Of a DNA stretch of 52,555 nt, positions 263-52,293 are shown in pieces (within the stretch, counting starts at the first letter, position 1; every line of letters starts with the position of its first letter). Below the pieces are notes generated by a model. The model saw only the letters and a list, made by a program, of their open reading frames with translations, ran no database searches and had not been told where the DNA came from. This DNA is from Methanotrichaceae archaeon (GTDB taxonomy: Archaea > Halobacteriota > Methanosarcinia > Methanotrichales > Methanotrichaceae): NCBI GenBank assembly GCA_963754945.1, contig CAVWIG010000008.1:1-52555 (forward strand). Direction: 5' to 3'. The translations under genes and the position numbers were made by a program.

Positions 263-1264
263 CTTAGACAATCCAGAAGTAAAAAGGTAGTGCGGTTCGC
301 TGTGGATTGGAGAGTTGCAGTAGCGAGCCACATTATTGACGATATCAAGAGTCACGAAGCGTTCAAGGTGGTCATAGATTGTGCTGAAAAGGCTGATTGG
401 AGAGTCAAGGAAGATCATAGGACTCAAAATAAGTTTTGGGATCTGGTTGAGGCGTTTGCCATCCTTCGATATAGGCAACGAGTCATAGACACGGAGGGCT
501 GGCTCCATGCCCTTGTCGAGGATTTCAATGAAGCCAAGACGGTTTTCATGAAAAGGAGATTCAGCCACAGGACACACTTGACAGGCGCTCAAACCAAGGT
601 AGTTAAATCCGTGATCGCCTTGCAGAATGAGCCGGATGGAGCGACCCAGGCCCGAATAGCTGAGGATTTAGGAATTTCTTTTAGGGCCGTGTCCAAGAGT
701 CTTAATGCAATAGAAGCTAACACCCGGTTTATCGTACATGAATTGAATCGAGGGACCAACTTCTATAGATGTACGGTTCCCGCTCTTGAGGTTCTCTATT
801 CGGAGGGGAATATTGTCTCCCTGCCTGATGACTACAAGGATTCTACTATGTTTCTACCGCCTTTCTACCATGTTTCTACTACTATTCTATCTAATAAAAT
901 CAATAACAATGGATGTAAAAGGGTAGAAAGAGTGTCTAATTTAAAAGAATGTAACAATGAACTTCCTAAAGTCGATGAAACATTGCTATGCTCGGAAAAT
1001 AGGGCGAAACAGGCGAATGAGCAAGCTGCGACGCAGGCCAAGGTAGAAACACAGGTAGAAACCGGCCCAAATCCTCGAAAATTCGCTCTTCCTCTCAAGG
1101 TGAAATTCCTGAAACCCTGTGGCCGGTTTGTAGGTGAAGATCTCCACATTCCGGGTGAGATTACAAACTACGGTCCTTATGAAATTGGCAATGTGGCAAC
1201 CCTTCCAAAGCTAAACGCAACAACGCTGATCATGAAAGGCGTGGCGGTGGAGGCTTCTGCGTGA
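263..1264 (+). pseudogene. C-terminal part of MCM-like AAA+ replication protein with wHTH and C-terminal GINS B-domain-like module; 5' part cut off by IS5
   Basis: Frame is open from the IS end (LRQSRSKKVVRF...); FAILRYRQR...EDFNEAK aligns with 50973-52293; HTH ATQARIAEDLGISFRAVSKSL; tail VKFLKP...YGPYEIGNVATLPKLNATTLIMKGVAVE. Confidence 0.65.
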
Positions 1265-1383
1265 AAAAAAGCAGTTCACGTTCACGAATCATAAAGAGGG
1301 ACGTGGTAAGAGTCTGGGATCTGCAGAAGAAAGCCTATCCAAAGGAAGCCTACGATGGGCACGACTTAGGCCAGGAGGCTTAG
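1261..1383 (+). CDS. Small basic protein (40 aa, not in ORF track), homolog of 50216-50353
   Basis: GTG start overlaps the upstream stop; LQKKAYPKEAYDG vs LQKKPYSKENYDG in element B. Confidence 0.6.
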   Translation: MKKSSSRSRIIKRDVVRVWDLQKKAYPKEAYDGHDLGQEA

Positions 1384-1875
1384 ATGGGCAAGAGAGGGCC
1401 TAAGTGTTCTATCTGCGAAAATCCGAAGGTTGAAGAAATCAATACGCAGATACTCGATAATCAGAAACTCGCGGATATCTCGCGGAAATTCGCGGTTTCT
1501 GCAGATGCCCTACAAAGGCACAGTGACAAGTGTATTGTCAGAGCCCTGGCGGCCACTCCAACCACAGCCGAGGTTATCACTGGTGATAAGCTATTAGATC
1601 AATTGAAAGAGGCCCGAGAAAAGGCCGTAGCTCTCTTGGACAAGGCCATCGATGCAGCCGACACTAAGGTCTATGGTGCCCCTTCTCAGTACCTCCGGGA
1701 GATTAGGGAACAAATCAAGTTATGGGCTGAGCTCGAGGGCCGGTTAGCATCACAGCCACAGATCACAATTATCAATAGCCCTGAATGGATCGAAATTCGA
1801 ACCCTAATCGTGAAGGCCCTAGACCCATTCCCCGAAGCTAAAGAGGCGGTAGTTCTTGCCATTCATGGGCGATGA
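1384..1875 (+). CDS. Putative terminase small subunit (CxxC plus HTH N-terminus, helical C-terminus)
   Basis: CSIC, HTH LADISRKFAVSADALQRH; directly upstream of the terminase ATPase. Confidence 0.6.
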   Translation: MGKRGPKCSICENPKVEEINTQILDNQKLADISRKFAVSADALQRHSDKCIVRALAATPTTAEVITGDKLLDQLKEAREKAVALLDKAIDAADTKVYGAPSQYLREIREQIKLWAELEGRLASQPQITIINSPEWIEIRTLIVKALDPFPEAKEAVVLAIHGR

Positions 1876-2626
1876 TCTCACATACTCCCTGGATCCGGTG
1901 GTGTGGTCTAGGGAAGTCCTGGGATATCATCCGGATTCCTGGCAAGCAAAAGTACTTCGAAGTCGTTCAAGAAACATCATTCTGAACTGTAGTCGACAGA
2001 GCGGCAAGAGTACAACATGCGCGGCTCTGGGTCTTCATGAGTCGGTCTATCGTCGTCCCTCTTTTGGTCTTGTAATCGCACCTTCACAGGATCAAAGCTC
2101 AGAGCTTATGATGAAGTTTGATGAGTTCCGGGGTGCTGTTGAGCTACCAAGCGATTACTTAGACACCGACACTAAGCTTGCGGTGAAATTCAAGAACGGC
2201 AACCGATTCATAGCTAGGCCAGGCTCGGAGAAGACCGCCAGATCCTTCAGCGCTGTAACTCTGCTTCTTGAAGATGAAGCTTCAAGGGTTCTCGACCCGC
2301 TCTATAACACAGTTCGCCCTATGCTCTCCGTGAGCAATGGCCGTCACATCTTGATGAGCACTCCCTTCGGCAAGCGAGGCCATTTTTTCCATATTTGGGA
2401 TGAGCAGCGGGATATGTGGGAGTGGTACGAAATTCTTGCCGAAATGTGCCCGCGCATATCGAGAGAGTTCTTAGAAGAAGAGAAAAGGACTAACCCCTGG
2501 TTTGAACAAGAATACCACTGTAAGTTCATGGAGACAACAGATAGCGTTTTCAGCTATGATCAGGTAGTGGGCGCAATCTCGGATGAGGTTGAACCGTTAA
2601 GCTTTGAGGTAGACGAATGGCATTAA
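1865..2626 (+). CDS. Terminase large subunit, ATPase domain only
   Basis: Q-motif WQ, Walker A SRQSGKST, Walker B LLLEDEA, motif III STP, FEQEYHC. Confidence 0.85.
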   Translation: MGDDLTYSLDPVVWSREVLGYHPDSWQAKVLRSRSRNIILNCSRQSGKSTTCAALGLHESVYRRPSFGLVIAPSQDQSSELMMKFDEFRGAVELPSDYLDTDTKLAVKFKNGNRFIARPGSEKTARSFSAVTLLLEDEASRVLDPLYNTVRPMLSVSNGRHILMSTPFGKRGHFFHIWDEQRDMWEWYEILAEMCPRISREFLEEEKRTNPWFEQEYHCKFMETTDSVFSYDQVVGAISDEVEPLSFEVDEWH

Positions 2627-3240
2627 GATTCTTTGTAGGGCTGGATTTGGGCCAGGCTAACGATTATACGGCTCTGTCCATCCTCGAGCGAGTGACCAGC
2701 AACAGCGAAAATGTCTATAATATCCGTCTCCTGGAGCGGATTAGAGGCGCTCCATATCCAGCCATCGTTAACAAGGTTGTAGGCATCATGGGATCTTCTG
2801 AGCTGGCGGACAGCGCCTCGCTTGCAGTGGACCAAACCGGAGTAGGTGCACCGGTTGTTGATCTCTTTAGAGCCTCGGGCCTTTACCCGATAGGCATTCT
2901 GATCCATGGAGGAGACCGTGTGACCAGCGAGGGCCTAACCTGGCGGGTTCCTAAGAGGGACCTCGTTGGTGTCTTGCAGGTGCTTCTGCAGAACAATAGG
3001 CTGAAGGTTGCTGCCAAACTGAAGCTAGGCCCGGTCTTGCAAAGGGAAATGCTCAATTTTAAAGTTAAGATAGATCCAGCAACGGCTCATGACAGCTACT
3101 CAGCCTGGCGCGAGGATGAACATGATGATTTGGTTCTCTCGGTTGCCTTGGCTGCCTGGTGGGGAGAACAAAATCCGCTGTACGAGTGGGTAGAACCGAA
3201 GCAAATTATGGGCTCGCCTGGGTATGTCGATCCATTTTAA
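2617..3240 (+). CDS. Terminase large subunit, RNase H-like nuclease domain as a separate ORF
   Basis: VGLDLG..D, VDQTGVG, HDDLVLS acidic motifs; own GAGGT RBS. Confidence 0.8.
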   Translation: MALRFFVGLDLGQANDYTALSILERVTSNSENVYNIRLLERIRGAPYPAIVNKVVGIMGSSELADSASLAVDQTGVGAPVVDLFRASGLYPIGILIHGGDRVTSEGLTWRVPKRDLVGVLQVLLQNNRLKVAAKLKLGPVLQREMLNFKVKIDPATAHDSYSAWREDEHDDLVLSVALAAWWGEQNPLYEWVEPKQIMGSPGYVDPF

Positions 3241-3258: not shown

Positions 3259-3747
3259 GTGGTGATAAATACGAACCTAGAAGGTGAAAAGCCGGTCGAT
3301 GCAATAACGACCAAAAAGAAAATTCTAACCTCTGAGGACCTTATCAATGGATTCCAAGCACCGGGTGTGATTTGTGGTCAACTTAATGAAAGCTACGTTT
3401 GGCGGGTGCTCATAACAAAACCGGACACCGTTGTACCCGTGTGGCTGCTTTACCATAATCGTTGTTCGGCTAGATTAAAACGGATAGTCCGGGGTACTTT
3501 GAAAAATATTCGGAACGGAAGACAATTAGATAAGAGCGTTGACCCAAAGGAATTGAACCTGATCGCGGATATTAACGAGCGTGCAAAAGGTCTCATTTCA
3601 AACAAATACTACGATATCAAATCCGAGAAAGAGCCCTTCTCGTTTGCATTTATTGTAGGTTGTGGTTACGAGATCAATATCAACGAAAAGGATGTGCTAG
3701 GCGTAATTTCTAAGATGATTAGCCATTACTTAGGAGGTGCATCATAA
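3259..3747 (+). CDS. Hypothetical protein
   Basis: 162 aa ORF coupled to the next gene; no recognised motif. Confidence 0.55.
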   Translation: MVINTNLEGEKPVDAITTKKKILTSEDLINGFQAPGVICGQLNESYVWRVLITKPDTVVPVWLLYHNRCSARLKRIVRGTLKNIRNGRQLDKSVDPKELNLIADINERAKGLISNKYYDIKSEKEPFSFAFIVGCGYEININEKDVLGVISKMISHYLGGAS

Positions 3748-4022
3748 TGGCGGTTAGATCATTTTATGCAGAGCTTGGCATTATCGACAAAATTACATCG
3801 AAGCTGCAACCGATTACCCAAGCAATTAATTCAGCTACTGTGGATCGTACTATCAAACTTAATGCCGACATCAGCGGCTTGAGCCAAAAAGTGGCCAATT
3901 CGGGTTCAGCCATCCAGAAGCACATTGGGGGCGGGGCTAAGATCGCAGAAGGTGCCGTAAAGGGGGTCGGCAAAGCTACTGAAGATATTACTACTGGCGC
4001 ATTACTAAAGCTAATTCAATGA
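3747..4022 (+). pseudogene. N-terminal fragment of tape-measure-like protein, truncated by cargo
   Basis: GGAGGTG RBS; MAVRSF start parallels MAIRDF of 45230-48031; same position in the module; runs into the ADH 3' end. Confidence 0.5.
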
Positions 4023-5060
4023 AGCCATGTCAATGATAAAGCGGTACTTCACATCGCCCTTTAGCATCCGCTCGTATGCCTCGTTGATCTTCTGGATCGG
4101 GATAACCTCCACGTCGGCAACGATGTTGTTCCTGGTGCAGAAGTCGATAATCTCTTGCGTCTCCTCGATGCTGCCGATTAAAGAGGACGCAATGCTGCGA
4201 CGCCGGAAAGCGAGCAGATCGACATCAAGGCTAGGCTCTAGCGGCTCAATCGCGCCCAGAATCACAAGCATGCCGTCTCGCTTCAGGAGCGCTGAATATG
4301 GGTTGATGTCGTGCGACTCAGGGATGGTATTCAGGATGAAGTCGAGGCTGGATGCATACTGCTTCATTGCCTCTTCGTCCGTCGAAAGGACTGCCTCATC
4401 AGCGCCCAATCGGGGAGCATCTGCTAACTTCCAGGGCGAGGTGGTGAAGACGGTCACATGTGCACCCATCGCCTTGGCGAGCTTGACGCCCATGTGGCCG
4501 AGACCCCCAAGGCCGACAATGCCGACACTGTGGCCTTTTCCGATCTTCCAGTGGCGGAGCGGGGAGTAGGTGGTGACACCTGCGCAAAGCAGCGGGGCAG
4601 CAGCCCTGGGGTCCAAGCTCTCAGGAACCTTAAACACGAAGTTCTCTGTCACGACGATCTTGTCGGAGTAGCCGCCGAAGGTGGGCTGACCAGTAAACCT
4701 GTCCACATCGTTATAAGTAAAAGTCGGTGCATTTTGGCAGTACTGCTCTAGACCTTCGGCACAGGCTTCACAGTGCTGGCAGGAGTCGACCATGCAGCCG
4801 ACTGCGGCTAGGTCTCCGCTCTTAAAATTGGTAACATGGTCGCCGACCTTGTCCACCCTGCCGATAATCTCGTGACCCGGCACCATGGGATAGATCGAGC
4901 TTTGCCACTTATTTCGGACAAAGTGAAGGTCTGTATGACACACGCCACAATATTGGATGTCGACCGACACGTCATGTGGACCAACCTTGTGGCGAGCGAT
5001 TTGAAAAGGACCTAATGGTTGAACGGCACTTTGAGCAGCGTACGCCATTGTTGGATACAT
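4011..5060 (-). CDS. Zn-dependent NAD(P) alcohol dehydrogenase (cinnamyl/AdhC/YahK type)
   Basis: CHTD, GHE, CxxCxxCx7C, GLGGLG. Confidence 0.95.
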   Translation of the reverse strand: MYPTMAYAAQSAVQPLGPFQIARHKVGPHDVSVDIQYCGVCHTDLHFVRNKWQSSIYPMVPGHEIIGRVDKVGDHVTNFKSGDLAAVGCMVDSCQHCEACAEGLEQYCQNAPTFTYNDVDRFTGQPTFGGYSDKIVVTENFVFKVPESLDPRAAAPLLCAGVTTYSPLRHWKIGKGHSVGIVGLGGLGHMGVKLAKAMGAHVTVFTTSPWKLADAPRLGADEAVLSTDEEAMKQYASSLDFILNTIPESHDINPYSALLKRDGMLVILGAIEPLEPSLDVDLLAFRRRSIASSLIGSIEETQEIIDFCTRNNIVADVEVIPIQKINEAYERMLKGDVKYRFIIDMASLN

Positions 5061-5117
5061 GATCTAATTCTCCTTCCTAGATCGCGTAAAGATCGTTGTA
5101 ATCAAATGAGCAAAGCC

Positions 5118-6128
5118 CTAGCCACTCAGCTTTCTGATCTTGGGAAGTACATCCCTGCCATATCCCTCGAGAAACTCCTTTTGATTGGGGCCTGCAGAAT
5201 GATAGAAAAAGTGATCGAACCCTAGGTCGATATACTTCCGAGCATAAGAGACGTGATCCTCCGGCCTGGAAGATATACACATCTTCTTCTCTATAGTGTC
5301 GCTGCCGACGGCCTCGCCATTTTTGGCAGCAAGCCTTGGCGTGTAGATCTTCTGGTTGAAAAGGGCAGGAAGGAAGCTCCCAGCCCAGTACTCTTTCATG
5401 GATTTGATAGCAGCGTCTTTATCTTCTGTGTAGGCCACGTTCAGCTCGATCAGCCGCGGCATCTTCGAGGGGTCTTTTCCCGCCTCTCTGGCTCCTGCCT
5501 CGAAGTTCTCTAATATCCGCTTATATGTCTCTGGCTTATCCCCGCCGACGGTTATCAGTCCGTCACCGTATCGACCCGCAAAAGAGGCGCTTTCGGGGAC
5601 CATGGTCGACACATACAGGGGAATGGGCTTTTCGGGCCTGGTATAAAGCCTGGCTTTGCGGGTGTGGTAGTAAATTCCATCAAAAGTTGTCTCCTGGCCA
5701 GTCCATAGAGATCTTATGAGATTGATGGCTTCTATCAACATCATCTGACGTTCTTCATATCCGGGCCACTCGCCTGTGGCAGCGTACTCGTTCAGAGCCT
5801 CGCCAGTTCCTACAGATAGATAAGCCCGGCCAGGTGCCATTACTCCCAGAGTGGCAGAGGCCTGAGCGACTATTGCAGGGTGGTAGCGATGGAGGGGGCA
5901 GGTTATGCCTGTGCCGAGTATGATCTTGCTGGTCTGGACAGCGACCGCTCCCAGCCACGTCCAGCTGAAGCAGGCCTGGCCCGACTCGCTCCATGGATGA
6001 AAATGATCGCTTACATCTATCGAATCAAAACCAGCATTTTCTGCTGCTATAGCGTACTCCAGCAGCTCCATTGGTGGGTACTGCTCAGGTCCTGCTTTCC
6101 ATCCCAGCTTTAACATTGTCGTCTCCAT
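5118..6128 (-). CDS. F420-dependent LLM-class oxidoreductase (G6PDH-F420 family)
   Basis: SDHFHPW, GTGEALNE; start chosen by family length. Confidence 0.9.
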   Translation of the reverse strand: METTMLKLGWKAGPEQYPPMELLEYAIAAENAGFDSIDVSDHFHPWSESGQACFSWTWLGAVAVQTSKIILGTGITCPLHRYHPAIVAQASATLGVMAPGRAYLSVGTGEALNEYAATGEWPGYEERQMMLIEAINLIRSLWTGQETTFDGIYYHTRKARLYTRPEKPIPLYVSTMVPESASFAGRYGDGLITVGGDKPETYKRILENFEAGAREAGKDPSKMPRLIELNVAYTEDKDAAIKSMKEYWAGSFLPALFNQKIYTPRLAAKNGEAVGSDTIEKKMCISSRPEDHVSYARKYIDLGFDHFFYHSAGPNQKEFLEGYGRDVLPKIRKLSG

Positions 6129-6748
6129 TCGCGGTTGATAAACTAATATAAAGAAAGAAGGCACAATATGCATTGTTATATAGACTCGTTCATAAATAAA
6201 CTTTTGGAAACTCTTCCCCTTGCCCAATTCCGAAATTTTGAAATCTGTATTAATCCCAAGTAAAGCATTGTCAAACCAATGACAGGAGCAACTCGACCGT
6301 TATCCTCCAGATATTCAGATCAAAGAAAGCTAATTTCAGGACTACACATTATGTCCTGCGATGAGATTCTAGCATATCCTTAATAGAATTCATATCATTA
6401 ATAGTAAATTGCTATTAACATCATCAAAGTAGATGAAATTACATATAAAGCTCCGGGTATAAAATGAGCCCCAAAATCTGGGCGAATCTTGCCTGAACGC
6501 TCAAATTGTAAAAGTTCTTCATCAGCAAAAAAAGATTCGGGATGACTATGCAGAAAAGCTTCGTATATTCTGAAGTAACCAAAATCGAAAAATGAACTGA
6601 GGCTGATTAAAACGACATTTGAAATGCCTCTAATAGTCATATCGAATCGAACATATATAGATCCAAGAAGGATAAATAAGACTGCAAAATGCAATATTGG
6701 TACGACGAATAAAATGATCCATGCTGCTAGCAAACGCTTAACATTATG

Positions 6749-10739: not shown

Positions 10740-10753
10740 GGGCAGCCCCTAAG

Positions 10754-12096: not shown

Positions 12097-12097
12097 T

Positions 12098-12886: not shown

Positions 12887-12888
12887 GA

Positions 12889-41795: not shown

Positions 41796-41798
41796 ATC

Positions 41799-43029: not shown

Positions 43030-43132
43030 GCAGGCAGAAGGCCAGAAGATCTGCAGGCAATAGCCGCCAGGTAGCTAGGAGATGGAGACAGGCCGCTATC
43101 CTGGCCAATCTTCTTTTTTGAGGCGGTGTCTC

Positions 43133-43735: not shown

Positions 43736-43738
43736 CGG

Positions 43739-44738: not shown

Positions 44739-45008
44739 ATGCTTTTCATTGCATTGGCTAAGTTCAAGAAAAAGCTGAGCAAGGAAGTTATTGCTGAGAA
44801 CCTGAAGGATATAGAAGACGACACGAAAGGACAGGTTCGATACCTGGGCATCTACTGGACGCTCGGAAGGTACGATACCGTCGTGCTATTTGAAGCCCCC
44901 AATGAAAAAGTAGCGATGAATATGGCCTTAAAAAGGGCGGACCGGATGGATATAGAGATTCTCGTGGCCGTACCAGCGGAAGAAGGGAGTCCAGCTGGAC
45001 CGACCTAA
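44739..45008 (+). CDS. GYD domain-containing protein (cargo)
   Basis: YWTLGRYDTVVLFEAP. Confidence 0.85.
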   Translation: MLFIALAKFKKKLSKEVIAENLKDIEDDTKGQVRYLGIYWTLGRYDTVVLFEAPNEKVAMNMALKRADRMDIEILVAVPAEEGSPAGPT

Positions 45009-45229: not shown

Positions 45230-48031
45230 TCAACTACCGCCACCATAGTGTGCGCTGCCTCTTTTCACGACTTCCTCGACTGCTCTTGCGATTTCGAACG
45301 GGTTCAATTTACTTTCCACAATCTCTTCGAACAATCGTCTGATCGTGCTTTCGTCAAGCTTTTCAGTAGCAGCGCCAGATATGGATATATCTCCTATGTT
45401 AATGTCTACTTTGATCGGTGACGACTGAGACGACGATCCACCAGATCTATCTATTGGAGGCATAACAGCCACAGGAGAATCGATCAGGGACTCTAGAATC
45501 TCTTGTAATCTAGATGAGCTGGCTATCTCGGCAGGAATGATAGGTTCCCCTTCGTGACCAATCAGCCCCCCCGAACTTGTGATTAGCCCGCCTTTTTGAG
45601 CAGGGACGTAATTGGCCTGCTGGTCTGGCCCAAGATAGTTATCGTATGTCTTTTTGTCTATGATATGTCCATCGATCTTGCTCTTGTACTGTGTTATTGG
45701 AGTTGGCGATGAGGGAGTTGGAGAAGATGGTGTTGTATCAGTTGTTGGTGTTGGTGTTGGGGTTCCTTTGAGATTGTCGATTAGCCCCATTGCAGCCGAG
45801 TATCCATATTTAAAGAGTGCAACTGGACCCTGATCGACCGATGCCGACGCTGGGCCGACTTGGTTTTTGTCCCACGCATTGAATTGTTGTTCCTGATTTT
45901 GGAGTTCGTTGTTAACCCCCTGGCTTAAACCAGCGCGCGCATCACTGAGAACATTTCTTGGGGCAGGTGTTGATGGCGTTGGAGTGTCTGGTTTTTTTGC
46001 GTCTGGGTGGTTCTTATAATAATCATCCCATGCTCGTTTCATCAGGTCAGGGTTTTGATTGTCTGGCAGATGATTATATGTAGCTGCTCCGATTGATTTG
46101 TCATCTGGCCCAACGATTATAAGCTGATCGCCTTCGCCAGGCGCTGTTTTATATCCTGGCGGCATCTGCGTTGTATCCAGGTTCAACGCTGGCGTTGTAC
46201 TTCCCGTAGACTGCGATTTGGCAATGTCGGCGTTTGTCTGATATCCTTTGCCTTGAGACCAGTTGCCAAGCCGCTCAAGCTCATCAGTTATCGGTTTCGC
46301 AATTCCCAGAATTGCACCAACTATGTCATCCCAGACACCCTTGATCCAAGTCACAAAGTCGGTATATACGGTCAGGAGTTCTCTAATCAGATAGTAAATC
46401 AGCTTGGTGAAGGAGTCGATCGGATCCAGGTGAGCCTCTATTAAAGGTAGGCCAGTTATCAATGCCCCTATAGGCCCGCCTATGGCAAATCCCAGCACCA
46501 CGTCGAGCGCATCATGGTCTTTTAGGAACTTGTAGAATCCGTCGGCCTTCTCGAAGGCACCGCCAACGACCTCTTCGAAGACGGTTACTCCCTGGACAGC
46601 TCCATTAAGAAAATGACCGCCCAGATCGACTGCTCCACTGCTTAGCAGGCCTACTAGCATCTGGACGTCGTTGATGAGATCTTTGCCCATGCTAGATTGG
46701 CTGAAGACTGTCCAGGCGTTTGAGAAGGCATGAGTCTTCTGTTCGACCTCATACAGGCCCACTCCTAGAAGGACCAATCCTGCCACAAGAGCAATTATTG
46801 GAAGGAAAGCGGCATATTCTGCCACTGCCATGGACCCGAACGCGCCTTCTGCCGCCAGTGCTGCATCACCAGTGTAGAACAGGCCCGTAGCCAATGTGTA
46901 AGCTGTACCTCCGACCGCAATCATTGGAAAGACAAGACCGTCAACAAGTCCTATGAGAGGCCCAACAATTCCTGCCAGAACGAGTGCAACTGCTGCTACG
47001 CCTAGCAATTGAGGTGCGCCTGGGATAGCATTTATCACATCAACGAGACCACCAACTGCATCCGTAAGTGCTAATAGGTAAGGCAGAGCACCGTCCTCGA
47101 TCGAGTCTGTCAGATCCTCAATTCGAGCCTCAAACATTTGGACTTTCTGTGTGGCTGACAGGTTAAAGTAATCAACGTCTGTCGTCTTTTTGATCAACTG
47201 ATCCTGAACAGCCTGAAGAAGAATTGCCTGGCGAATTTGTTGATCTGTGAGTCCGATAAGCTCTCCTTTATTTTTTAGCTCTCTCTCTGCGGCGGATTGA
47301 TCTTTTTCGGTTGGAGCCGAAATGCCGAGATTCGCCAAGACCATTCCGGCTCGACCCATGCTCCCAAGCACTGCGCCTCCTTGGGATGCGGCCTTGCTGG
47401 GCTCCATGTTAGAAAGACGTTGAGAATACTGTGCCATCAACGCGGTTATATCAGGCGCTCCAACTTCGCCCAGTCTTGCCGCGTTCGAAAACTGGAACTT
47501 CTCTGCCGCTTCCTGAAACGCCATTGCTTGCTCAGTACCAACGCCATGGAATCTCAACTGGATTAGGGCCTGGGCTCTTTCATCGTACGAAATTTGTGGA
47601 GGGCGCGATGCCAACCATTGTTGAATACCTGCCTGCTCTGCCGTGGTGAACGACTCGGCGATAGCGTCCTGGATTCGCTGATTCTCAAAAACGTGATTAG
47701 CGCCAAGGGCTATAATAGCACCCGCAGCAACTTTGGTCGCCGATATAGAGTCGACCATGTTGCCGATAGACTCTGAGACACCTTCAGCCGTGCCCTTCAA
47801 GCTCTCAAACATGTCACTTAGATACCCAGTAATCGATTGAGTCTCCTGTTCGGTTTCTCCGAGTTGATCAACTGAGGCCACCAGAGCATCAACGCCTCCG
47901 GTGTCCGCGTCTATGTTGATCTCCCACGCATTTTCTACTAACTGTTGGGCCAGGTCTAACGTGGACTGGAGCTCGTCTTTAGCTCCATTATCGTTGAACA
48001 AAGTGCGAATGATGAAGTCACGTATTGCCAT
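45230..48031 (-). CDS. Tape-measure-like protein (933 aa)
   Basis: Helical N-half, central hydrophobic segments, Pro/Thr linkers, C-terminal AQKGGLI...GHEGEPIIP motif typical of TMP ends. Confidence 0.7.
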   Translation of the reverse strand: MAIRDFIIRTLFNDNGAKDELQSTLDLAQQLVENAWEINIDADTGGVDALVASVDQLGETEQETQSITGYLSDMFESLKGTAEGVSESIGNMVDSISATKVAAGAIIALGANHVFENQRIQDAIAESFTTAEQAGIQQWLASRPPQISYDERAQALIQLRFHGVGTEQAMAFQEAAEKFQFSNAARLGEVGAPDITALMAQYSQRLSNMEPSKAASQGGAVLGSMGRAGMVLANLGISAPTEKDQSAAERELKNKGELIGLTDQQIRQAILLQAVQDQLIKKTTDVDYFNLSATQKVQMFEARIEDLTDSIEDGALPYLLALTDAVGGLVDVINAIPGAPQLLGVAAVALVLAGIVGPLIGLVDGLVFPMIAVGGTAYTLATGLFYTGDAALAAEGAFGSMAVAEYAAFLPIIALVAGLVLLGVGLYEVEQKTHAFSNAWTVFSQSSMGKDLINDVQMLVGLLSSGAVDLGGHFLNGAVQGVTVFEEVVGGAFEKADGFYKFLKDHDALDVVLGFAIGGPIGALITGLPLIEAHLDPIDSFTKLIYYLIRELLTVYTDFVTWIKGVWDDIVGAILGIAKPITDELERLGNWSQGKGYQTNADIAKSQSTGSTTPALNLDTTQMPPGYKTAPGEGDQLIIVGPDDKSIGAATYNHLPDNQNPDLMKRAWDDYYKNHPDAKKPDTPTPSTPAPRNVLSDARAGLSQGVNNELQNQEQQFNAWDKNQVGPASASVDQGPVALFKYGYSAAMGLIDNLKGTPTPTPTTDTTPSSPTPSSPTPITQYKSKIDGHIIDKKTYDNYLGPDQQANYVPAQKGGLITSSGGLIGHEGEPIIPAEIASSSRLQEILESLIDSPVAVMPPIDRSGGSSSQSSPIKVDINIGDISISGAATEKLDESTIRRLFEEIVESKLNPFEIARAVEEVVKRGSAHYGGGS

Positions 48032-48401: not shown

Positions 48402-49184
48402 TTATATCATCTCCAAAGTCAATTGTTTTTGTTGTTCAACATGCTCAACTTCTAATTGCAACGACCCTTTCCTTGCCTTGTTTGATTCTCGTTTATTCCA
48501 GATCGTTGCTTGCTCGTCGACGTAGATCCAGCCGCGTCTCCGACAGAGATCTTCCATCTCCTGCCGGTGACCATAGATTACGAACTTGATAGCGTCCGTA
48601 CCTGCTTGTGATTCTGCTAAAGAAGCCTGATCCATTATGCTCTGTAGCGAACTGCTCTTCTCGATCCTGGTCGCATATGCTTTCCAGCCCAAAGGAACGC
48701 CCAGAAGATTGATGTCCCACCACTTCGGAGCTACGTTGAGATCGACCCAGCATCGCATTCCACGCTCTTGCCAATACCTTGACAAGAACCGCTTTTTGCC
48801 TATCTGCTCCAGAGCTCTCCAACGAGGCTGGGAGTTCGAAGTCGAGAAGTTGACCTCCACAAACGAAGGAGCTCCACTTTGCCATACTCGATCAGGCTTA
48901 TTCCAGACCGCTGCAAAGCGATAATCGTCCGTGTAGAAGTGGATAGTTCTGCCCCGAAAATCCCCAGTTCGGCGAACAGATCCCCAGGCCAGAGGATAAT
49001 CAAAGAAATCCCCCTGCCTGTCTACGAGGAGATCAGCAACCCCCTCGGTGTTTGATGCTGGAAATATACAATCAGGAACTGCGTCCATTGACATTGACAT
49101 AGACCTCTCAAAATAAGGAGACCGGACAAGGCTCTTCAAGTTCGAACTTTCAAATACTCGGCCCAACTCCTTCGCAATGCTCAC
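48402..49184 (-). CDS. DUF4417-like phage protein
   Basis: HFYTDDYRF...W..P, NFS, SRYWQERG; start uncertain (49184 or ~49088). Confidence 0.7.
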   Translation of the reverse strand: MSIAKELGRVFESSNLKSLVRSPYFERSMSMSMDAVPDCIFPASNTEGVADLLVDRQGDFFDYPLAWGSVRRTGDFRGRTIHFYTDDYRFAAVWNKPDRVWQSGAPSFVEVNFSTSNSQPRWRALEQIGKKRFLSRYWQERGMRCWVDLNVAPKWWDINLLGVPLGWKAYATRIEKSSSLQSIMDQASLAESQAGTDAIKFVIYGHRQEMEDLCRRRGWIYVDEQATIWNKRESNKARKGSLQLEVEHVEQQKQLTLEMI

Positions 49185-49364
49185 GTCTCTCCTCCATTTT
49201 TGCAAACGCCTTCTCTAGCATCTCTTTAAATGCCGGGTCCCATCGGACGTTAGGATCGCGGCCATGGGCACGCCAGAGGGCGTAATCAGCAAGATCATCA
49301 ATAATAGGGGCACTATTTCTAGCGCAGCTACGCGGCGGTTGAGTGCAACAGCAACAGCACTCAT
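49150..49364 (-). pseudogene. Small protein, N-terminal LNRRVAALE heptad, probably frameshifted near 49317
   Basis: MSAVAVALNRRVAALE then NSAPIIDDLADYALW... in a shifted frame. Confidence 0.45.
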
Positions 49365-49519
49365 AGCCTGACCTCGTCCAACCAGCGTAATTGAATATGG
49401 ATCGCGTTCGGGTCCAACGGCTCCGGGTCGTCATCATACCAACGCAAGCGGATCTTCGGTGGTTCTTCTTGCTGACTTTCGAGGTTTTCCAGCCGCCTAC
49501 TCAAAGAATCCGTTTTCAT
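49361..49519 (-). CDS. 52 aa protein MKTDSLSRRLENLE... (not in ORF track)
   Basis: ATGA overlaps at both ends; first 10 aa identical to the upstream ORF. Confidence 0.65.
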   Translation of the reverse strand: MKTDSLSRRLENLESQQEEPPKIRLRWYDDDPEPLDPNAIHIQLRWLDEVRL

Positions 49520-49698
49520 TTCTCATCAATCCATTCAAATTTGAACATCTCATAACTACTACGAGGGATCCGGCGCTCGATCAATGGTCCGGCTGGTGTG
49601 CCATCCTCATGCAGCCACTGATGAGCAACCTGGACCGTATCCTGCTCTGGATCTTCCTCCAGTGCCGAGAGTCGCCGGGAAAGGCTATCTGTTTTCAT
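49516..49698 (-). CDS. Small protein MKTDSLSRRLSALE...
   Basis: Coupled ORF with shared heptad. Confidence 0.65.
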   Translation of the reverse strand: MKTDSLSRRLSALEEDPEQDTVQVAHQWLHEDGTPAGPLIERRIPRSSYEMFKFEWIDEK

Positions 49699-49700
49699 TG

Positions 49701-49979
49701 TCACTCCGAGGCAGCGATGCCGGTCTCTTGGTCTTCAAAGTCTTCACAATATTCTTGGTAGCGGGCCAGCCTTGCGTCTCGGGCGAATCTGGCATCTCTT
49801 TCGGCCTTTCTTTCTGGTGTCCCAGTGCATTCCCATGGCCTTGTGTCATCGAAATAGCTGGCATATCTTGCAAGACGCTTGTTCGGATTGCAGTCATGGG
49901 GTGGCCATCGATCGCCGGAAACGCGGCTTTGCGTGGCCTCCAGCGCCTCGATGCGTTTCTCTAAATGCAGGGTCCTCAT
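49701..49979 (-). CDS. Small protein MRTLHLEKRIEALE...
   Basis: ATGA overlap; shared heptad. Confidence 0.65.
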   Translation of the reverse strand: MRTLHLEKRIEALEATQSRVSGDRWPPHDCNPNKRLARYASYFDDTRPWECTGTPERKAERDARFARDARLARYQEYCEDFEDQETGIAASE

Positions 49980-50212
49980 TTCTTGGTCTCCTTCTCTTTC
50001 TCCAAGGTCGTAAGCCTGGCCTCGATGTCCTCTAATTTATTCAATTCATAAGATTTCAACCAAACAGATAATATTTGGCTGATCCTACCCAGATATTCAA
50101 TTTCAGCATCCGGACCGCGTTCTTTCAGATTCCTCAGCAGCCGACGGATGTACTCTTGTGCATCCTCTGGATTATTCAATTTAAGTCGCAGATATCGCTT
50201 CTTTTCGGGCAT
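49976..50212 (-). CDS. Helical protein in the terminase-small-subunit position, C-terminal IEARLTTLE heptad
   Basis: GGCGGTGA RBS; follows the conserved small ORF, as TerS does in element A. Confidence 0.6.
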   Translation of the reverse strand: MPEKKRYLRLKLNNPEDAQEYIRRLLRNLKERGPDAEIEYLGRISQILSVWLKSYELNKLEDIEARLTTLEKEKETKK

Positions 50213-50215
50213 GGT

Positions 50216-50353
50216 TCACCGCCAGCGCTTTTTGAATTCGGGTTGATCCCCGGCTCCCTCGGAGCCGTCGTAGTTTTCCTTCGAGTAGGGTTTCTTCTGT
50301 AGGGTTCGAACTCTTCGCCTTGCGATTTGTAAATGTAAGTTGCCTTTTTTCAT
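50216..50353 (-). CDS. 45 aa basic protein, homolog of 1261-1383 (not in ORF track)
   Basis: MKKGNLHLQIARRRVRTLQKKPYSKENYDG. Confidence 0.55.
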   Translation of the reverse strand: MKKGNLHLQIARRRVRTLQKKPYSKENYDGSEGAGDQPEFKKRWR

Positions 50354-50455
50354 ATGCTGGCCCCCACAATCTCGATCATTCCATTTTTGCTAGAATCTCA
50401 GCCATTCTGCCAACCAATGCGGAATTTAGATGACGGAAATATACAATCAGGAACT

Positions 50456-50791
50456 TCAGACATCCTTACCGCCTCCGCATGCAAGCCAGTTGCCCTTATT
50501 GTCCCGAGGCAGATTTGCCAAGAACTCATCTATCCCTTTTGTTCGATCGATTGGTGGCACTGGCTGAACTGGACGCTCGAACAAGGGTGTCAAAAAGGCA
50601 ATCTCCTCCGAGGTCAGATTTTCAAAAGGCTGATCGCCCGCAAGCGCGTGTTTGATGAAGATTTCGGTCATTTGGTCGAGCTCTGCCCAGCTGAGACCAG
50701 CCAGAAATGCCTTGCAATCGTCGCTGATGGTCTCATGTGAGCCGATCGACAAAGTGACAAGCCGCCTCTCGAAGGCCTTAAGGCTCTTCAT
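50456..50791 (-). CDS. Hypothetical protein with N-terminal FERRLVTL heptad
   Basis: GGAGGT RBS, ATGA overlap. Confidence 0.6.
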   Translation of the reverse strand: MKSLKAFERRLVTLSIGSHETISDDCKAFLAGLSWAELDQMTEIFIKHALAGDQPFENLTSEEIAFLTPLFERPVQPVPPIDRTKGIDEFLANLPRDNKGNWLACGGGKDV

Positions 50792-50976
50792 GTTTTGACC
50801 TCCACAGGGGTGACAACTCCATGTTTTGCTAGAATCTTAGCCAACCAATACGGAATTTCGGCTATATCGCCTCGTGCAATGTCTTTATTTTCCAAAAAAC
50901 CACACTCTATAGCAGCTGAGATTATCTCGTCTGAGGATAGCCCCTCTATAAGCTTCTCGAAATCGGAGGGATTCAT
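50788..50976 (-). CDS. Small protein ending in a GINS B-domain-like segment
   Basis: GDIAEIPYWLAKILAKHGVV. Confidence 0.5.
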   Translation of the reverse strand: MNPSDFEKLIEGLSSDEIISAAIECGFLENKDIARGDIAEIPYWLAKILAKHGVVTPVEVKT

Positions 50977-52293
50977 GCTGCGACCAGCTCCACAATACCG
51001 CGCTTGAGTAAGTCTTCAGCCATCCATCTCTGTAACATGACGGTATCGCCGGCCTCGTAAAGATGGTCTGCATACTTCTTAGGATTGTCCGGATCTGCGA
51101 TTTGAGTCCTGTAATCCTTCAAGAATCGAACCTTTACGAGGTCAGTGGGTTGGGGCTTCTTGGCGTGCTCCTCGGTTTTGCTGGCTAACTCTTCGCCTCG
51201 TTGGTTCGCTAACCTAGAACCGCTATCCTCTGCCTTCTTCGTGGGATAGTTCGCGCTTGGTGCACTGGAAGTTCGCACGGAAGAATCCACACCTGGAGGC
51301 TCTAAGTTCGCAAGTTCGCAAGATTTCGCTGGGTGAGAGAGAGAAAAAGAATTTTCCTTATCCAGATGAGAGGGGTGTACGTTGTTCGTACCTCTCTCTC
51401 TTATATTATTATATTCTACGAACTTACGAACTACATCTTTACCGAACTCGTTTTTGACCTGCGAACTATCCGCGAACTCAGACGAACTATCCGAACAATG
51501 CCGCTTGATATTGGTTTCGTCAGTATCCAAAGAAACCGCTTTACCGTATGCTTTCAGAATATCGTAGTCCTCGGAGAGCCGATAGACTTTCTTTTTCTTG
51601 CTGATCTTAGTATCCCTGTCAACCCATTTCAGTGTTCCTTCGTCTTCCTCTGTCAATGCAGCGCATTTGTGCAACAGTCCATATTTGGCCTGACCATCTC
51701 GACTCCGGCCATTCAAGATATCAGATAATGCACCTTTGGAGAACCCTGTCTTCTCCATTATCATTTCTCGGGTAGCCTCGCCGTGCAAGTCCTTGATAGC
51801 CTGGAGGGTTCGAAGTTCACCAGGGGTGTACTTGGTGTCGCTGTGACCTTTTATGGCATTGAAAAAAGTTTCAGCATCCTTGTAATCTTCATAGCTGGCT
51901 ATCACAGCGCCGTTCTTGCCCTTCTCCCTGGTCTGGTGTCTCCAGATTGCAAAACTGGACACCAAGTCAGCAAAGATTGTAGCTCCTCGGGGATCTCCGT
52001 AGAACTTAATGTGATCAGCAAATGGAATCACCACATCAACGAATACCTGTTTTAACAAGTAGACTATGGCCCTACAAACTTCAATCTCATGAGGGTCGAA
52101 GGTAGCAGCACCGCTTTTCCTCTGCTCGAAAATGAAGTCTATGATTTCCTGGGTGTGCTTTGGGTCCTCTGTGATGTCAATCCTAAGTAGCCTGTCCCTT
52201 ACCTGTTCGTCTGTTTGGGCGTCGGCTGTGGTTATCCAAAATATGATACGGGGAGCTGTCTTGAACTGTTGAATTTCTTGGTCTACAACTACA
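50973..52293 (-). pseudogene. C-terminal part of MCM-like AAA+ replication protein with wHTH and GINS B-domain-like tail; 5' part cut off by IS5
   Basis: ITTAD...DEQVRDR (sensor-1/Arg-finger-like), PRG, ASYEDY; HTH; VKVRFLKDY...YEAGDTVMLQRWMAEDLLKRGIVELV. The ORF-track start 52352 lies inside the IS. Confidence 0.7.

Follow-up and report, generated by a model that had tools for sequence, protein, structure and literature searches.

What kind of mobile element carries genes for packaging DNA and for building a virus tail, and no recognisable gene for a capsid? The question is raised by contig C8 of a Methanotrichaceae archaeon, which was analysed over its whole length of 52,555 nucleotides (hereafter, the window) and is best read as holding two inverted, IS-eroded representatives of a family of small Methanothrix mobile elements (Table 1).

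Table 1 Features of the window.
Feature	Position	Strand	Basis or remark
Partial IS copy, contig end	1-262		Right end of the 1,285-bp IS
Left Rep, C-terminal 324 aa	290-1264	+	Primase-helicase type, GINS-like C-terminal domain
40-aa ORF downstream of Rep	1261-1383	+	Conserved
Putative TerS-like protein, 163 aa	1384-1875	+	Position and architecture
TerL-N, large terminase ATPase	1856-2626	+	Terminase_6N 2.4e-10; phrog_7579 2.7e-42
TerL-C, large terminase nuclease	2617-3240	+	phrog_27743 2.2e-37; phrog_5909 (TerL) 0.0019
162-aa ORF, no assigned function	3259-3747	+	
Tape-measure-type stub, 91 aa	3747-4022	+	N-terminal, truncated
YahK-like Zn alcohol dehydrogenase	4011-5060	-	PDB sequence match 4e-123
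F420-dependent dehydrogenase, luciferase-like family	5118-6227	-	PDB sequence match 7e-82
Full IS copy	6749-8033	+	353-aa transposase ORF 6811-7872
CDGSH iron-sulfur protein	8335-9036	-	zf-CDGSH 1.8e-41
SnoaL-like protein	9144-9590	+	SnoaL 1.3e-24
140-aa protein labelled 'wHTH'	10317-10739	-	Family conserved in capsid-less elements and one provirus
Tyrosine integrase	10754-11689	-	Phage_integrase 4.4e-23, SAM-like N-terminal domains (Pfam)
Left early operon	11677-13536	-	ORFs of 139, 278, 94, 41, 77 aa
58-aa divergent ORF	13620-13796	+	RHH-like by pattern only
att-like 26-mer	13867-13892		Overlaps 3' end of tRNA-Gly(GCC) 13884-13955 (-); ARAGORN
att-like 26-mer, inverted copy	40853-40878	+	24/26 match to left copy
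52-aa divergent ORF	40985-41143	-	RHH-like by pattern only
Right early operon	41246-43029	+	ORFs of 96, 41 aa, split 278-aa homologue, 139-aa homologue
150-aa 'wHTH'-family protein	43082-43534	+	Homologues L011, L022, L051, 60-69% identical
TPR protein	43739-44437	-	TPR families (Pfam scan)
GYD-domain protein	44739-45008	+	C18 homologue matches GYD, 9.2e-9
Tape-measure-type protein, 933 aa, intact	45230-48031	-	
DUF4417 protein, 267 aa	48402-49205	-	DUF4417 2.5e-15; phrog_940 'nuclease' 2.2e-26
Small-ORF run	49150-50976	-	95, 52, 62, 92, 78, 45, 111, 62 aa
Second Rep, C-terminal ~440 aa	50973-52352	-	IS-cut
Partial IS copy, inverted, contig end	52293-52555		

Copies of a single IS, inverted relative to each other, occupy both contig termini (1-267 and 52289-52555), and the segment 1-262 is 100% identical to 7772-8033. 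A BLAST search with this IS against its own genome (87.7% complete) gave 60 full or partial matches, spread over 26 of the 54 contigs. The flank just past the left-end IS reads CTTA, and a matching target duplication is absent from all contig ends of the assembly. The left Rep gene is interrupted by the partial copy at 1-262, and the first ~20 codons of the right Rep ORF are IS sequence. Because Rep is cut by the IS in both copies, the left tape-measure gene is shortened, the right integrase is missing and a right early gene is split (the homologue of the 278-aa protein is broken into 184 and 96 aa), the two members in the window are probably dead.

The original prediction saw two mirror-image flanks, which holds for the early regions but not for the late ones. 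Six inverted arm pairs (62-324 nt each, 80-94% complementary) link 10679-13357 to 41615-43193, and the corresponding left and right proteins are 79% (139/177 aa), 91% (278/184 aa) and 83% (41 aa) identical; the likeness of the flanks is confined to these early regions (80-94% DNA identity, inverted), and the late modules differ, the right one having a DUF4417 gene and no terminase. Likewise, the predicted integrase is present in the left copy and absent from the right early operon. The left 139-aa and 278-aa ORFs gave no Pfam matches. A profile search with the 140-aa ORF found matches in 10 loci, the family of the right-hand 150-aa ORF included; the Pfam scan was empty for both ORFs, and 'wHTH' is a tentative label for them. 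The same applies to 'RHH' for the small divergent ORFs, whose PDB matches are all non-significant (E 0.24-0.4; for the 58-aa ORF the best are CopG/Arc/MetJ proteins, E 0.4). A homologue of the 58-aa ORF (64% identical) lies at the end of an att-bounded element (L012), and homologues of the 52-aa ORF (47-62% identity) adjoin full proviruses (L015 and L016). The att-like 26-mers sit at the RHH-side ends of both flanks; a degenerate tRNA-Gly 3' remnant directly follows the right one, at which ARAGORN found no tRNA. The supposed palindromic region is weak, with a 10-nt repeat on the left and, on the right, an 11-nt perfect palindrome (43714-43736) and a 23-nt inverted repeat (41164-41217) adjoining the 52-aa ORF.

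A replication gene at both flank ends was correctly foreseen, the two Rep fragments being 32% identical across 99 aa. The left one matches Gins51_C (3e-10, Pfam) and shares 38-52% identity with the C-terminal portions of relatives' Rep ORFs (799-976 aa), and a Rep profile derived from relative L041 matches the window at 251-1261 (8e-16); the right one aligns at 59% identity with residues 366-775 of the L010 Rep (799 aa). The conserved 40-45-aa ORF was borne out too: a profile search with the left 40-aa ORF recovered the contig C18 homologue of the right 45-aa ORF (50216-50353) at 1.5e-10, so that the two are homologous through the C18 copy. A terminase slot exists on the left, where TerL-C is a separate ORF overlapping TerL-N by 10 nt and is 34% identical (6e-33) to an ORF of contig C21 that matches Terminase_6C (3.6e-11); on the right the slot is taken by the unrelated DUF4417 protein. 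Position and architecture suggest that the 163-aa ORF is TerS-like: homologues lie immediately upstream of TerL-N in 47 loci, full viruses among them, and its AF2 model (pLDDT 75.8) shows an HTH at the N-terminus together with long helices, with no significant match in a fold search and none in Pfam or PHROG. The 162-aa ORF is also empty in Pfam and PHROG, and its profile recovered only itself from all fetched loci.

Tape-measure-like genes had been proposed for both flanks; the right one is intact, but the left is a 91-aa N-terminal stub that aligns over 83 aa with the N-terminus of an 841-aa family member, P0096 (61% identity, 6e-31), and ends where the opposite-strand alcohol dehydrogenase gene ends. 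The 933-aa protein itself has no match in Pfam, PHROG, PDB or phage records. It is hydrophobic in a central region, carries the conserved motif G..G..H.GE..IP in its C-terminal part, and matches an 867-aa ORF in the tape-measure position of a contractile-tail cluster (E 8.6e-7; 2e-12 for its C18 copy). The family profile found 746 representatives. One family member follows sheath, tube and two small ORFs and precedes Baseplate_J; Atlas neighbours of the 933-aa protein include tape-measure clusters, and P0096 aligns with the C-terminal end of the protein annotated as tape measure in Methanosarcinales virus BK063673.1 (39% identity, 4e-12). Synteny and this match to an archaeal virus protein support the tape-measure assignment. 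The C18 copies of the 933-aa protein and of the DUF4417 protein are 67% and 97% identical, with dN/dS of 0.23 and 0.14, respectively. The small ORFs recur in C18 in the same order at 49-97% identity, except for the 62-aa ORF at 50788-50976; the last of the run is weakly GINS-like (PSF3_N and Gins51_C matches below cut-offs). As to the cargo position, the two oxidoreductase genes are present, at the DNA level, in two of 20 related genomes and there only partly, and the segment 44382-45035 is 96.7% identical to C18. The zf-CDGSH and SnoaL matches come from a Pfam scan of 51 proteins and were assigned to their ORFs by sequence.

The expectation that the window lacks portal, capsid, protease and tail-tube genes was confirmed among the scanned ORFs and the matches listed (25 of the 40 families matched by the 51 proteins), and lineage-specific profiles of two head modules matched nothing in the window. 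The largest unassigned late ORF, the tape-measure-type and DUF4417 proteins aside, is the 162-aa one. Searches of the host's own genome with four families and the provirus proteins found no portal or capsid gene, and six of 10 sampled genomes with a TerL-N at least 76% identical lack either capsid type; any helper would therefore in most cases need to come from outside. 'No capsid' is here a statement from homology searches, with the L041 ORFs outside the Pfam and PHROG protein scans. Head module 2 was missed by the first profiles, and four loci initially scored as capsid-less carry this unrelated module, so such a head module can escape detection.

TerL-N relatives were surveyed in 17 genomic and 37 IMG/VR loci. 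Within the 30-row clade that includes the window gene, 14 loci have no portal or capsid gene despite at least 3 kb of downstream sequence, head modules 1 and 2 occur in four loci each, and 8 loci are too short for classification. Iterated profiles of module 1 (portal, major capsid, minor head, adaptor) and module 2 (portal, Mu-F/protease, decoration, capsid) matched none of the 14; a scaffold-like profile matched one, a 114-aa ORF of L011. The eight loci with head modules are full tailed viruses, so that a terminase without a capsid is a trait of some loci and not of the whole clade. Proviruses of this kind have portal (phrog_533 2e-14), capsid (phrog_267 1.5e-44), minor head and adaptor genes and a TerL-N 60-80% identical to that of the window, a kinship with real viruses that is observed directly. 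One starred subclade (99) groups four full viruses with two of the small elements: L011, one of the 14, and L010, from the loci too short for classification. Among 81 genomes of the family, matches to TerL-N numbered 45, in 29 genomes; those to the two capsid types numbered 18, in 13 genomes, and 4, in 4 genomes.

Three capsid-less relatives are complete, at 14.9, 17.65 and 21.1 kb with IS included. The C21 element, in the same genome as the window, spans 14.9 kb between perfect 57-bp repeats, one within tRNA-Leu, and encodes Rep, TerS-like, TerL-N, TerL-C, an IS and an integrase. The L012 element lies in a closed 3.6-Mb chromosome between 18-bp repeats spaced 21,083 bp apart; this chromosome also carries a full provirus with a 1,089-aa tape measure, a TerL-N 62-64% identical to those of other family members and a 50% identical integrase. 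L041 is a 17,738-bp record whose 87-bp terminal repeat (also classed by IMG/VR as direct terminal repeats) gives a circle of 17,651 bp with no integrase. For member pairs with computable dS, the dN/dS values among capsid-less members are 0.04-0.07 for TerL-N, at saturated dS, and 0.08-0.18 for TerL-C, and the window's TerL-N likewise gives 0.04-0.07 against capsid-less relatives; purifying selection on the terminase of these relatives is strong. Many assemblies repeat the order Rep, small ORF, TerS-like, TerL. A capsid-less family, as originally proposed, is thus supported at the level of complete members, but the window copies are not equivalent to each other and are probably dead; and whereas intact relatives without portal and capsid exist, their TerL clade also includes full viruses.

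This gene content fits, rather than proves, a parasitic life in shells borrowed from tailed archaeal viruses, and we put the chances at about even that the family hijacks head-tailed Methanothrix viruses in the manner of a satellite. A member combines a divergent switch and early operon, in many cases accompanied by a tyrosine integrase that targets tRNA genes; its own primase-helicase-type Rep; and a short late module drawn from head-tailed viruses, namely TerS-like plus a two-gene large terminase (the type of the left copy) and/or a single tail gene, usually of tape-measure type, as in both window copies, and hub-like or tube-like in some relatives. Portal and major capsid genes are absent by homology search. 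The element would replicate on its own. In a cell where a head-tailed Methanothrix virus is also multiplying, the element's terminase may recognise the element's DNA and pump it into the portal-bearing procapsids of the virus, to which virus tails would then be joined; the tape-measure-type protein may be incorporated into those tails or serve at ejection. The family's gene content, completeness, conservation and selection are observed, whereas packaging in helper capsids, the identity of the helper and any role of the tape-measure gene are what we infer from the genes. Having no terminase, the right copy and its C18 twin fall outside the packaging argument.

Alternatively, these could be ordinary proviruses in decay, whose head and most tail genes were lost to deletions and IS traffic and whose terminase and tape-measure genes are leftovers with no function of their own. 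The erosion of both window copies, the 60 IS matches, a left tape-measure gene that stops after 91 codons and the full viruses in the TerL clade all agree with this, as do the odd lone morphogenesis genes of relatives (protease-like, scaffold-like, tube-like or hub-like); the prohead-protease-like (phrog_12864 8.8e-8) and scaffold-like genes of some members could equally be decay leftovers. We nevertheless consider decay distinctly unlikely, given that repeats or circularity mark three relatives as complete and these still have no head genes, that the Rep to TerL order recurs across assemblies, and that TerL is intact and, unlike relics, strongly constrained, with purifying selection also on the tape-measure-type and DUF4417 genes.

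Integrative plasmid-like elements might instead have acquired virus genes for uses other than travel in capsids, for example to disturb the packaging or tail assembly of viruses, as a defence to the advantage of both element and host, or to process the products of their own replication. For such a purpose, a TerS-like, ATPase and nuclease set under strong purifying selection, which is what active packaging needs, would be surprising, as would a TerL-N that stays 60-83% identical to those of real viruses, expected if portal docking is required; no known defence domain was seen, in a search outside the PADLOC library. Own Rep, integrase and switch, the 17.65-kb circle without integrase, cargo-like metabolic genes, a right-hand type with tape-measure-type and DUF4417 genes but no terminase, and the lack of either capsid type in most element-bearing genomes speak for this possibility, which we hold to be unlikely. 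Even less probable are small autonomous viruses with portal and capsid proteins too divergent, or of too different a fold, to be recognised: although several ORFs of complete members have no assignment, module 2 was overlooked at first and the contigs are listed as viral in IMG/VR, the full viruses of the clade start their portal gene within about 2.5 kb after TerL-N, where the small elements have short ORFs, a tape-measure-type gene or reverse-strand early genes, and the unassigned late ORFs of the window do not exceed 162 aa, the tape-measure-type and DUF4417 proteins excepted.

No such family was found in print in the literature searched. In the available part of Zhou et al. 2025, archaeal satellites are described only for spindle-shaped viruses.

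Although wrecked, both element copies at the window ends are members of a genuine and conserved family of elements that replicate themselves. The mirror symmetry originally noted for the two flanks holds for the early regions, which are inverted homologues, but not for the late modules, which differ. Six inverted arm pairs in the early regions are 80-94% complementary, and the early proteins of the two flanks are 79-91% identical. Both early regions end in a small divergent ORF followed by an att-like 26-mer; the two 26-mers, inverted relative to each other, are alike in 24 of 26 bases, the left one overlapping the 3' end of tRNA-Gly and the right one being followed by a degenerate remnant of the tRNA-Gly end. 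A tyrosine integrase (Phage_integrase, 4.4e-23) is encoded in the left copy and is missing from the right copy, in which the homologue of a 278-aa early gene is split. A 27-kb host block with tRNA-Gly at its left end is bracketed by the inverted att-like sites and by early-region homology of 2.4 kb, likewise inverted, and this block could flip by recombination. Within the host block, two tandem duplications were observed, one made up of two 362-aa ORFs (92% identical over 300 nt) and the other a repeat of ~1.44 kb (78-84%) with paired 167-aa ORFs.

Coordinates of the features discussed (window positions unless a contig or locus is named)
Feature	Coordinates	Basis or remark
IS copies	1-262, 6749-8033, 52293-52555	identity to one 1,285-bp IS
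Left Rep fragment	290-1264	equals last third of relatives' 800-980-aa Rep proteins; GINS-like domain at its end
Right Rep fragment	50973-52352	equals residues 366-775 of the 799-aa Rep of L010
62-aa ORF downstream of right Rep	50788-50976
Inverted arm pairs	10679-13357 vs 41615-43193	six pairs
Left att-like 26-mer	13867-13892
Right att-like 26-mer	40853-40878
Host-block tandem duplications	17512-19960, 26619-29123
Cargo block	3700-6400
DNA homology to C18	50803 down to 44382
Tape-measure-type paralogues	45230-48031; G000:C18:191590-194391
Split TerL	1856-3240; L003 10202-11834; L016 9938-11405; L018 9941-12771
C21 element	G000:C21:18347-33266 (L003 348-15267)	14.9 kb between perfect 57-bp repeats, one inside tRNA-Leu(TAG)
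Family member in contractile-tail cluster	L030:13767-16370
Contractile-tail cluster (L030/L031)	G004:C1:2580000-2612000
Scaffold-like ORF	L011 11589-11933
Prohead-protease-like ORF	L012 8624-9202

Only three features are common to the late parts of the flanks: replication proteins (Rep) of one family, 32% identical over 99 aa; a conserved ORF of 40-45 aa; and a gene of the tape-measure type. In the left module, a TerS-like gene is followed by TerL-N and TerL-C, the ATPase and nuclease genes of a split large terminase, then by an orphan 162-aa ORF and the first 91 codons of a tape-measure-type gene, which stops at the end of an opposite-strand alcohol dehydrogenase gene. TerL-N matches Terminase_6N (2.4e-10) and phrog_7579 (2.7e-42), and TerL-C matches phrog_27743 and is 34% identical to a Terminase_6C-positive ORF on contig C21 of the same genome. 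The right module comprises several small ORFs in a row, a protein with DUF4417 (2.5e-15; phrog_940, 2.2e-26) and one intact protein of 933 aa. Thus, of the terminase slots proposed for both flanks, the left one holds TerL-N and TerL-C, but in the right one no terminase was found and the DUF4417 protein is present instead. Comparison with PDB yielded only chance-level matches for the right-copy DUF4417 protein and no significant match for the ORFs labelled RHH on first inspection. Contig C18 of the same genome repeats the right late module in the same order, behind another IS and a different Rep, a primase-polymerase with an NrS-1 HBD domain (1.2e-31); the DNA homology between the two includes the GYD gene. 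The cargo block, sought in 20 relatives, yielded one 232-bp piece and one 67% match, and appears to be neither clearly host core nor clearly part of the element.

The contig that forms the entire window (C8) is one of 54 in an assembly of 2.97 Mb (estimated completeness 87.7%), and all closest relatives of the mobile genes in the window come from Methanothrix/Methanotrichaceae assemblies. Both contig ends are formed by partial, inverted copies of a 1,285-bp IS, a full copy of which lies inside the contig, and each terminal copy interrupts one Rep gene. There were 60 full or partial BLAST matches to this IS, on 26 of the 54 contigs, which indicates that the assembly breaks at the IS. The genome is unusually IS-ridden, with this IS at many contig ends and several mobile elements cut by it. 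When the contigs of the genome were searched by tblastn with the full-length Rep proteins of relatives, no N-terminal Rep halves adjoining IS ends were found, and none of the five IS left-end flanks examined (four contig ends and one inside C53) shows the target duplications that the two ends of the window call for. The sequence beyond the two IS breaks, recovery of which had been proposed, was accordingly not obtained, there being no matching contig end or Rep half in the assembly. A GINS-like domain (Gins51_C, 3e-10) forms the end of the left Rep; in the right copy, weak GINS-like matches below the cut-offs came from a distinct ORF of 62 aa, situated immediately downstream of Rep. This suggests that the GINS-like part may be a replisome-recruiting module, either fused to Rep or split off.

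Tape-measure-type genes had been predicted on both flanks. The left stub is 61% identical (6e-31) to the N-terminus of P0096, an 841-aa member of the family described below, so that both flanks carry the same kind of gene, but only the right one is intact. The 933-aa protein showed no match in Pfam, PHROGs, PDB (profile, 0 matches) or phage records (tblastn), and word-index searches, with the single sequence and with a profile, recovered its own paralogue only. It is related to four other ORFs of 790-870 aa (E 1e-5 to 1e-12), and a profile built from the five sequences gathers 746 representatives, mostly of 750-1,100 aa. Four lines of comparison point to a putative protein of the tape-measure type. 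One related ORF, on a closed Methanothrix chromosome (locus L030), takes the tape-measure position in a contractile-tail cluster, in the order sheath-like ORF (Phage_sheath_1C, 1.2e-4, below the cut-off), tube-like ORF, two small ORFs, family member and Baseplate_J (1.1e-18). P0096 matches (39%, 4e-12) the C-terminal 98 residues of a protein annotated 'tail length tape measure protein' (phrog_28) in BK063673.1, a 60-kb Methanosarcinales virus in which the sheath gene and a pair of small ORFs precede this gene. In the member carried by L012, an att-bounded element, the region of the conserved C-terminal motif matches phrog_15478 (tape measure) at 1e-3, and the language-model (atlas) neighbours of the 933-aa protein include tape-measure clusters (TMP_3). 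There is no detectable relation between the family and either the 1,089-aa tape measure of the provirus in the Methanothrix genome G004 or a 950-aa ORF of locus L006, and no tail module surrounds either window copy.

The intact paralogues in the window and on C18 have a dN/dS of 0.23 and a nearly identical middle stretch. They are mosaic, with a dS of 0.069 at codons 601-750 and saturation in the N-terminal 300 codons, a pattern that points to probable recent recombination between the right-copy and C18 elements. The L030/L031 cluster lies on one strand, with sheath-like, tube-like, tape-measure-family, hub-like and Baseplate_J genes, and would represent a Methanothrix provirus of the myovirus type or else a system resembling tailocins. 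Single tail-cluster genes were also observed alone in small elements, tube-like in L022 and hub-like in L041 and L007.

Three complete members, of 14.9, 17.65 and 21.1 kb, were found among the intact relatives checked for a structural module, and in profile searches all three are free of portal and capsid genes, as predicted. The largest full-virus records are 38.6-46.9 kb long, and the full provirus of G004 extends over ~34 kb from a gene of the family labelled 'wHTH' to the integrase. The 14.9-kb member, on C21 of the window's own genome, encodes Rep, a TerS-like protein, TerL-N (Terminase_6N, 1.7e-14), TerL-C (Terminase_6C, 3.6e-11), an IS, an integrase and a 407-aa secreted-looking protein. 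Its split TerL is only 37% identical to that of the window and represents a second, deeply divergent terminase lineage in the same genome. The largest member (L012) lies in the closed 3.6-Mb chromosome of G004 between 18-bp repeats 21,083 bp apart, and carries an integrase, TerS-like and TerL genes, an 808-aa tape-measure-type gene, a prohead-protease-like ORF (phrog_12864, 8.8e-8) and at least two IS (ISAZ013, 3.4e-142; DDE_3-type). The full provirus, 0.83 Mb from this element, has its own split TerL, portal, capsid and tape measure, and the integrases of the two are 50% identical. Recent exchange between them, considered on account of two 99%-identical genes, was dropped as an explanation, the genes pointing to transposases (DDE_3 and HTH families, with two members each). 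The remaining member, the IMG/VR record L041, has an 87-bp terminal repeat giving a 17,651-bp circle and encodes Rep, TerS-like, TerL and a hub-like 425-aa protein related to the ORF one gene past the tape measure in the contractile-tail cluster; it has no integrase. Each of 20 sequencing runs, searched as Logan contigs, contained at most 0.20 of the sampled words. Four runs compared with the C21 element gave mostly IS sequence and thinly covered, dispersed fragments, and at such depth no junction of the att repeats was seen.

Relatives of TerL-N came from genome assemblies (17 loci) and from IMG/VR (37 loci), and these loci are of three kinds. In full head-tailed (pro)viruses with head module 1, the two TerL genes are followed by portal (phrog_533, 2.2e-14; SPP1_portal, 3.1e-12), minor head, scaffold-like, major capsid (phrog_267, 1.5e-44) and adaptor genes. 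Loci L036-L039 carry an unrelated head module 2, with ORFs of 457-463, 598-603, 234-236 and 304 aa, the second of which is related, by sequence inspection, to the protease-like ORF of L012. These four loci were first counted as capsid-less, an assignment rejected because the downstream ORFs of 457, 599, 234 and 304 aa constitute the second head module. At the small loci, the genes after TerL-C are short ORFs, one of the tape-measure type or early genes on the reverse strand. The 30-row TerL-N clade that includes the window gene comprises 14 small loci (counted as such given at least 3 kb downstream and no portal or capsid), 4 with head module 1, 4 with head module 2 and 8 that are too short. 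The basal branches of the TerL-N tree are full viruses, and the tree requires at least four state changes (counted with L036-L039 as capsid-less). The small elements L010 and L011 group with four full viruses in a subclade starred in the tree (99), indicating that the terminase moved between the two kinds of genome. Between pairs of small elements, dN/dS is 0.04-0.07 for TerL-N and 0.08-0.18 for TerL-C (where dS is not saturated). Among 81 sampled genomes of the family, TerL-N has 45 matches in 29 genomes, capsid type 1 has 18 in 13 and capsid type 2 has 4 in 4; of the 10 genomes with a TerL-N at least 76% identical to that of the window, 4 have one capsid type and 6 have neither.

TerL is split into ATPase and nuclease genes in every member of the clade, full viruses included, and in L018 ORFs of 397 and 57 aa lie between the two halves. 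The nearest phage relatives of TerL belong to Thermus phage Riverbug and Meiothermus phages MMP7 and MMP17 (39-40% identity), that of MMP17 being annotated as 'terminase, ATPase subunit'. For the model of the TerS-like protein (pLDDT 75.8), Foldseek gave 0 matches in PDB at E <= 0.001, with the small terminase 4xvn only at rank 16 (E 4.6). One IMG/VR record, L051 (6,612 bp), resembles a 6.5-kb circle, given its terminal repeat of 127 bp; it contains TerL-N (72% identity), small ORFs and a protein homologous (69%) to the right-hand one of 150 aa, with no recognisable TerL-C, and could represent a minimal relative or an artefact of assembly.

In agreement with the predicted absence of head genes, the scanned window ORFs gave no match to portal, capsid, protease or tube families, the capsid families sought including those of the HK97-fold major capsid protein, and profiles of the two local capsid lineages matched neither the window nor the 14 small loci. 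The whole genome (87.7% complete) likewise contains no portal or capsid gene by tblastn or by four families (capsid, PF05065 and phrog_267; portal, PF04860 and PF05133), and two TerL genes are present. In L041, L034, L035 and other small loci, the check for head genes was by our own profiles, PF04860 and PF05065. Portal profiles match full viruses only (portal 1 in 18 loci and portal 2 in 4), and the iterated profiles of module 1 (portal, capsid, minor head, adaptor) and module 2 (portal, Mu-F/protease, decoration, capsid) match 0 of the 14 small loci; the scaffold-like profile matches one of the 14, at a 114-aa ORF of L011. Truncated head-assembly genes occur in two small elements, namely this homologue of the full viruses' scaffold-like protein and a 192-aa prohead-protease-like ORF in L012, the sole relative with such an ORF. 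Either could serve to remodel the capsids of a helper, or be no more than a leftover.

Satellite traits are apparent in the window as the integrase and the Rep fragments, and in the complete relatives as Rep, att repeats, absence of portal and capsid and, in some, an integrase. The original prediction of a satellite-like, capsid-less family is partly supported by the complete relatives, but in the window itself the modules are broken. Judged from sequence, selection maintains in the family a putative packaging enzyme of virus type, and in many cases a single tail gene, without a shell. The candidate genes for redirected packaging, TerL and the TerS-like gene (the latter by position), are retained, and selection is purifying; no pac or cos site was recognised. 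The simplest use of such a set without a portal would be to load element DNA into the portal-bearing procapsids of another virus. Identity to the co-occurring viruses is 60-83% for TerL-N compared with 19-36% for the TerS-like protein, which fits the loading of helper procapsids: the motor would need to go on fitting the portals of the helper, whereas DNA recognition would stay private. Candidate helper lineages are the L036-L039 type, which has the closest TerS-like gene and TerL-N, and the L045/L053 type. We tentatively propose that these elements may be the first satellites of head-tailed archaeal viruses, with a design for which no bacterial counterpart is described either, in which an element would combine its own terminase, and often a tail protein, with the portal-capsids and the remaining tail of a helper, and which would include a terminase-less sister type. 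The latter, represented by the right copy and its C18 twin, appears to keep only the tape-measure-type gene (dN/dS as given for the paralogues, 0.23) and the DUF4417 protein (0.14), with no other virion gene. We know of no parallel for a terminase-less element with a selected tape-measure-type gene and a DUF4417 protein, and this type is the least explained.

Other explanations can be set beside the same observations. Plasmid-like elements could use terminase and tail genes for interference, which would accommodate a type devoid of terminase; purifying selection on the terminase and the 60-83% identity of TerL-N to that of viruses are to be set against it, and we regard interference as unlikely, though conceivable. 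Decay of proviruses would account for the broken modules of the window, and for truncated head genes if these are leftovers; complete members bounded by repeats and dN/dS values of 0.04-0.07 for TerL-N are to be set against it, and we consider it quite unlikely. Small viruses with unrecognised capsids would be in line with the listing of these loci as viral in IMG/VR, and the finding of two unrelated head modules among the relatives leaves room for such viruses; the iterated profiles of both modules found no portal or capsid at the small loci. We judge this reading very unlikely. Even if the elements are not satellites, a conserved terminase on which purifying selection is strong needs explaining in a capsid-less element.

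In digesters, sediments and peat, Methanothrix is one of the main methane producers that use acetate, and to our knowledge its mobile elements are almost unstudied. If the elements ride in the capsids of head-tailed viruses, satellite-helper parasitism would extend to archaeal Caudoviricetes, with a new division of labour whereby the satellite supplies the motor and tail ruler and the helper supplies the shell; cargo (oxidoreductases, Fe-S, GYD and TPR proteins) could move between methanogens, and virus yield could drop. For annotation, 37 such IMG/VR loci are already listed as viruses, and provirus counts in Methanotrichaceae may include such elements. Consistent with this, the accessible part of one report gives seven predicted provirus regions for a Methanotrichaceae assembly (PMC13573593).

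In the literature searched, no account was found of methanogen elements that bear a terminase but lack a capsid; supplementary tables, such as those of Medvedeva et al. 2023 and PMC13573593, may list such loci. Within the accessible text of Zhou et al. 2025 (bioRxiv 10.1101/2025.02.15.638363), archaeal satellites are described only for spindle-shaped viruses, namely pSSVx, pSSVi and the SRCE elements, and neither a terminase nor a tape-measure gene is described for these. NMV2S, a putative Asgard satellite, is a small circle with a helicase-primase, an Arc-like regulator and a Cas4-like nuclease, and the accessible portion of its description does not mention a terminase or tail gene (bioRxiv 10.64898/2026.08.12.739948). 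As far as these sources go, what the Methanothrix elements have in common with them is a plasmid-like archaeal element and the proposed use of a co-infecting virus's morphogenetic module.

With head-tailed (pro)viruses of Methanothrix and Methanosarcinales (L015, L016, L018, L025/L026, L036-L039 and BK063673.1), the elements share the TerS-like gene, the split TerL (TerL-N 60-83%), the integrase family (50%), the RHH-like and 'wHTH' families and the C-terminal domain of the tape measure, whereas portal, minor head, scaffold, capsid, adaptor and a full tail module are confined to the (pro)viruses and are found neither in the window elements nor as a set in the 14 small loci. The layout resembles that of bacterial PICIs, which are small, with an integrase at a conserved site, a divergent switch and no known capsid gene, and with their own primase-type replication and a small-terminase-like gene beside the cargo. 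PICIs, including SaPIs, redirect the large terminase of the helper and are not known to carry a TerL or tape-measure gene; in contrast, the Methanothrix elements carry a TerS-like gene and a two-gene TerL, often one tail gene, and have an archaeal host. The capsid-forming PICIs (cf-PICIs) encode capsid, portal, protease and connectors, as well as their own TerS and TerL, and are known to steal only tails. Unlike these, the Methanothrix elements are devoid of portal and capsid, but they resemble cf-PICIs in having their own TerS-like gene and TerL and in what would be a dependence on a helper for part of the virion.
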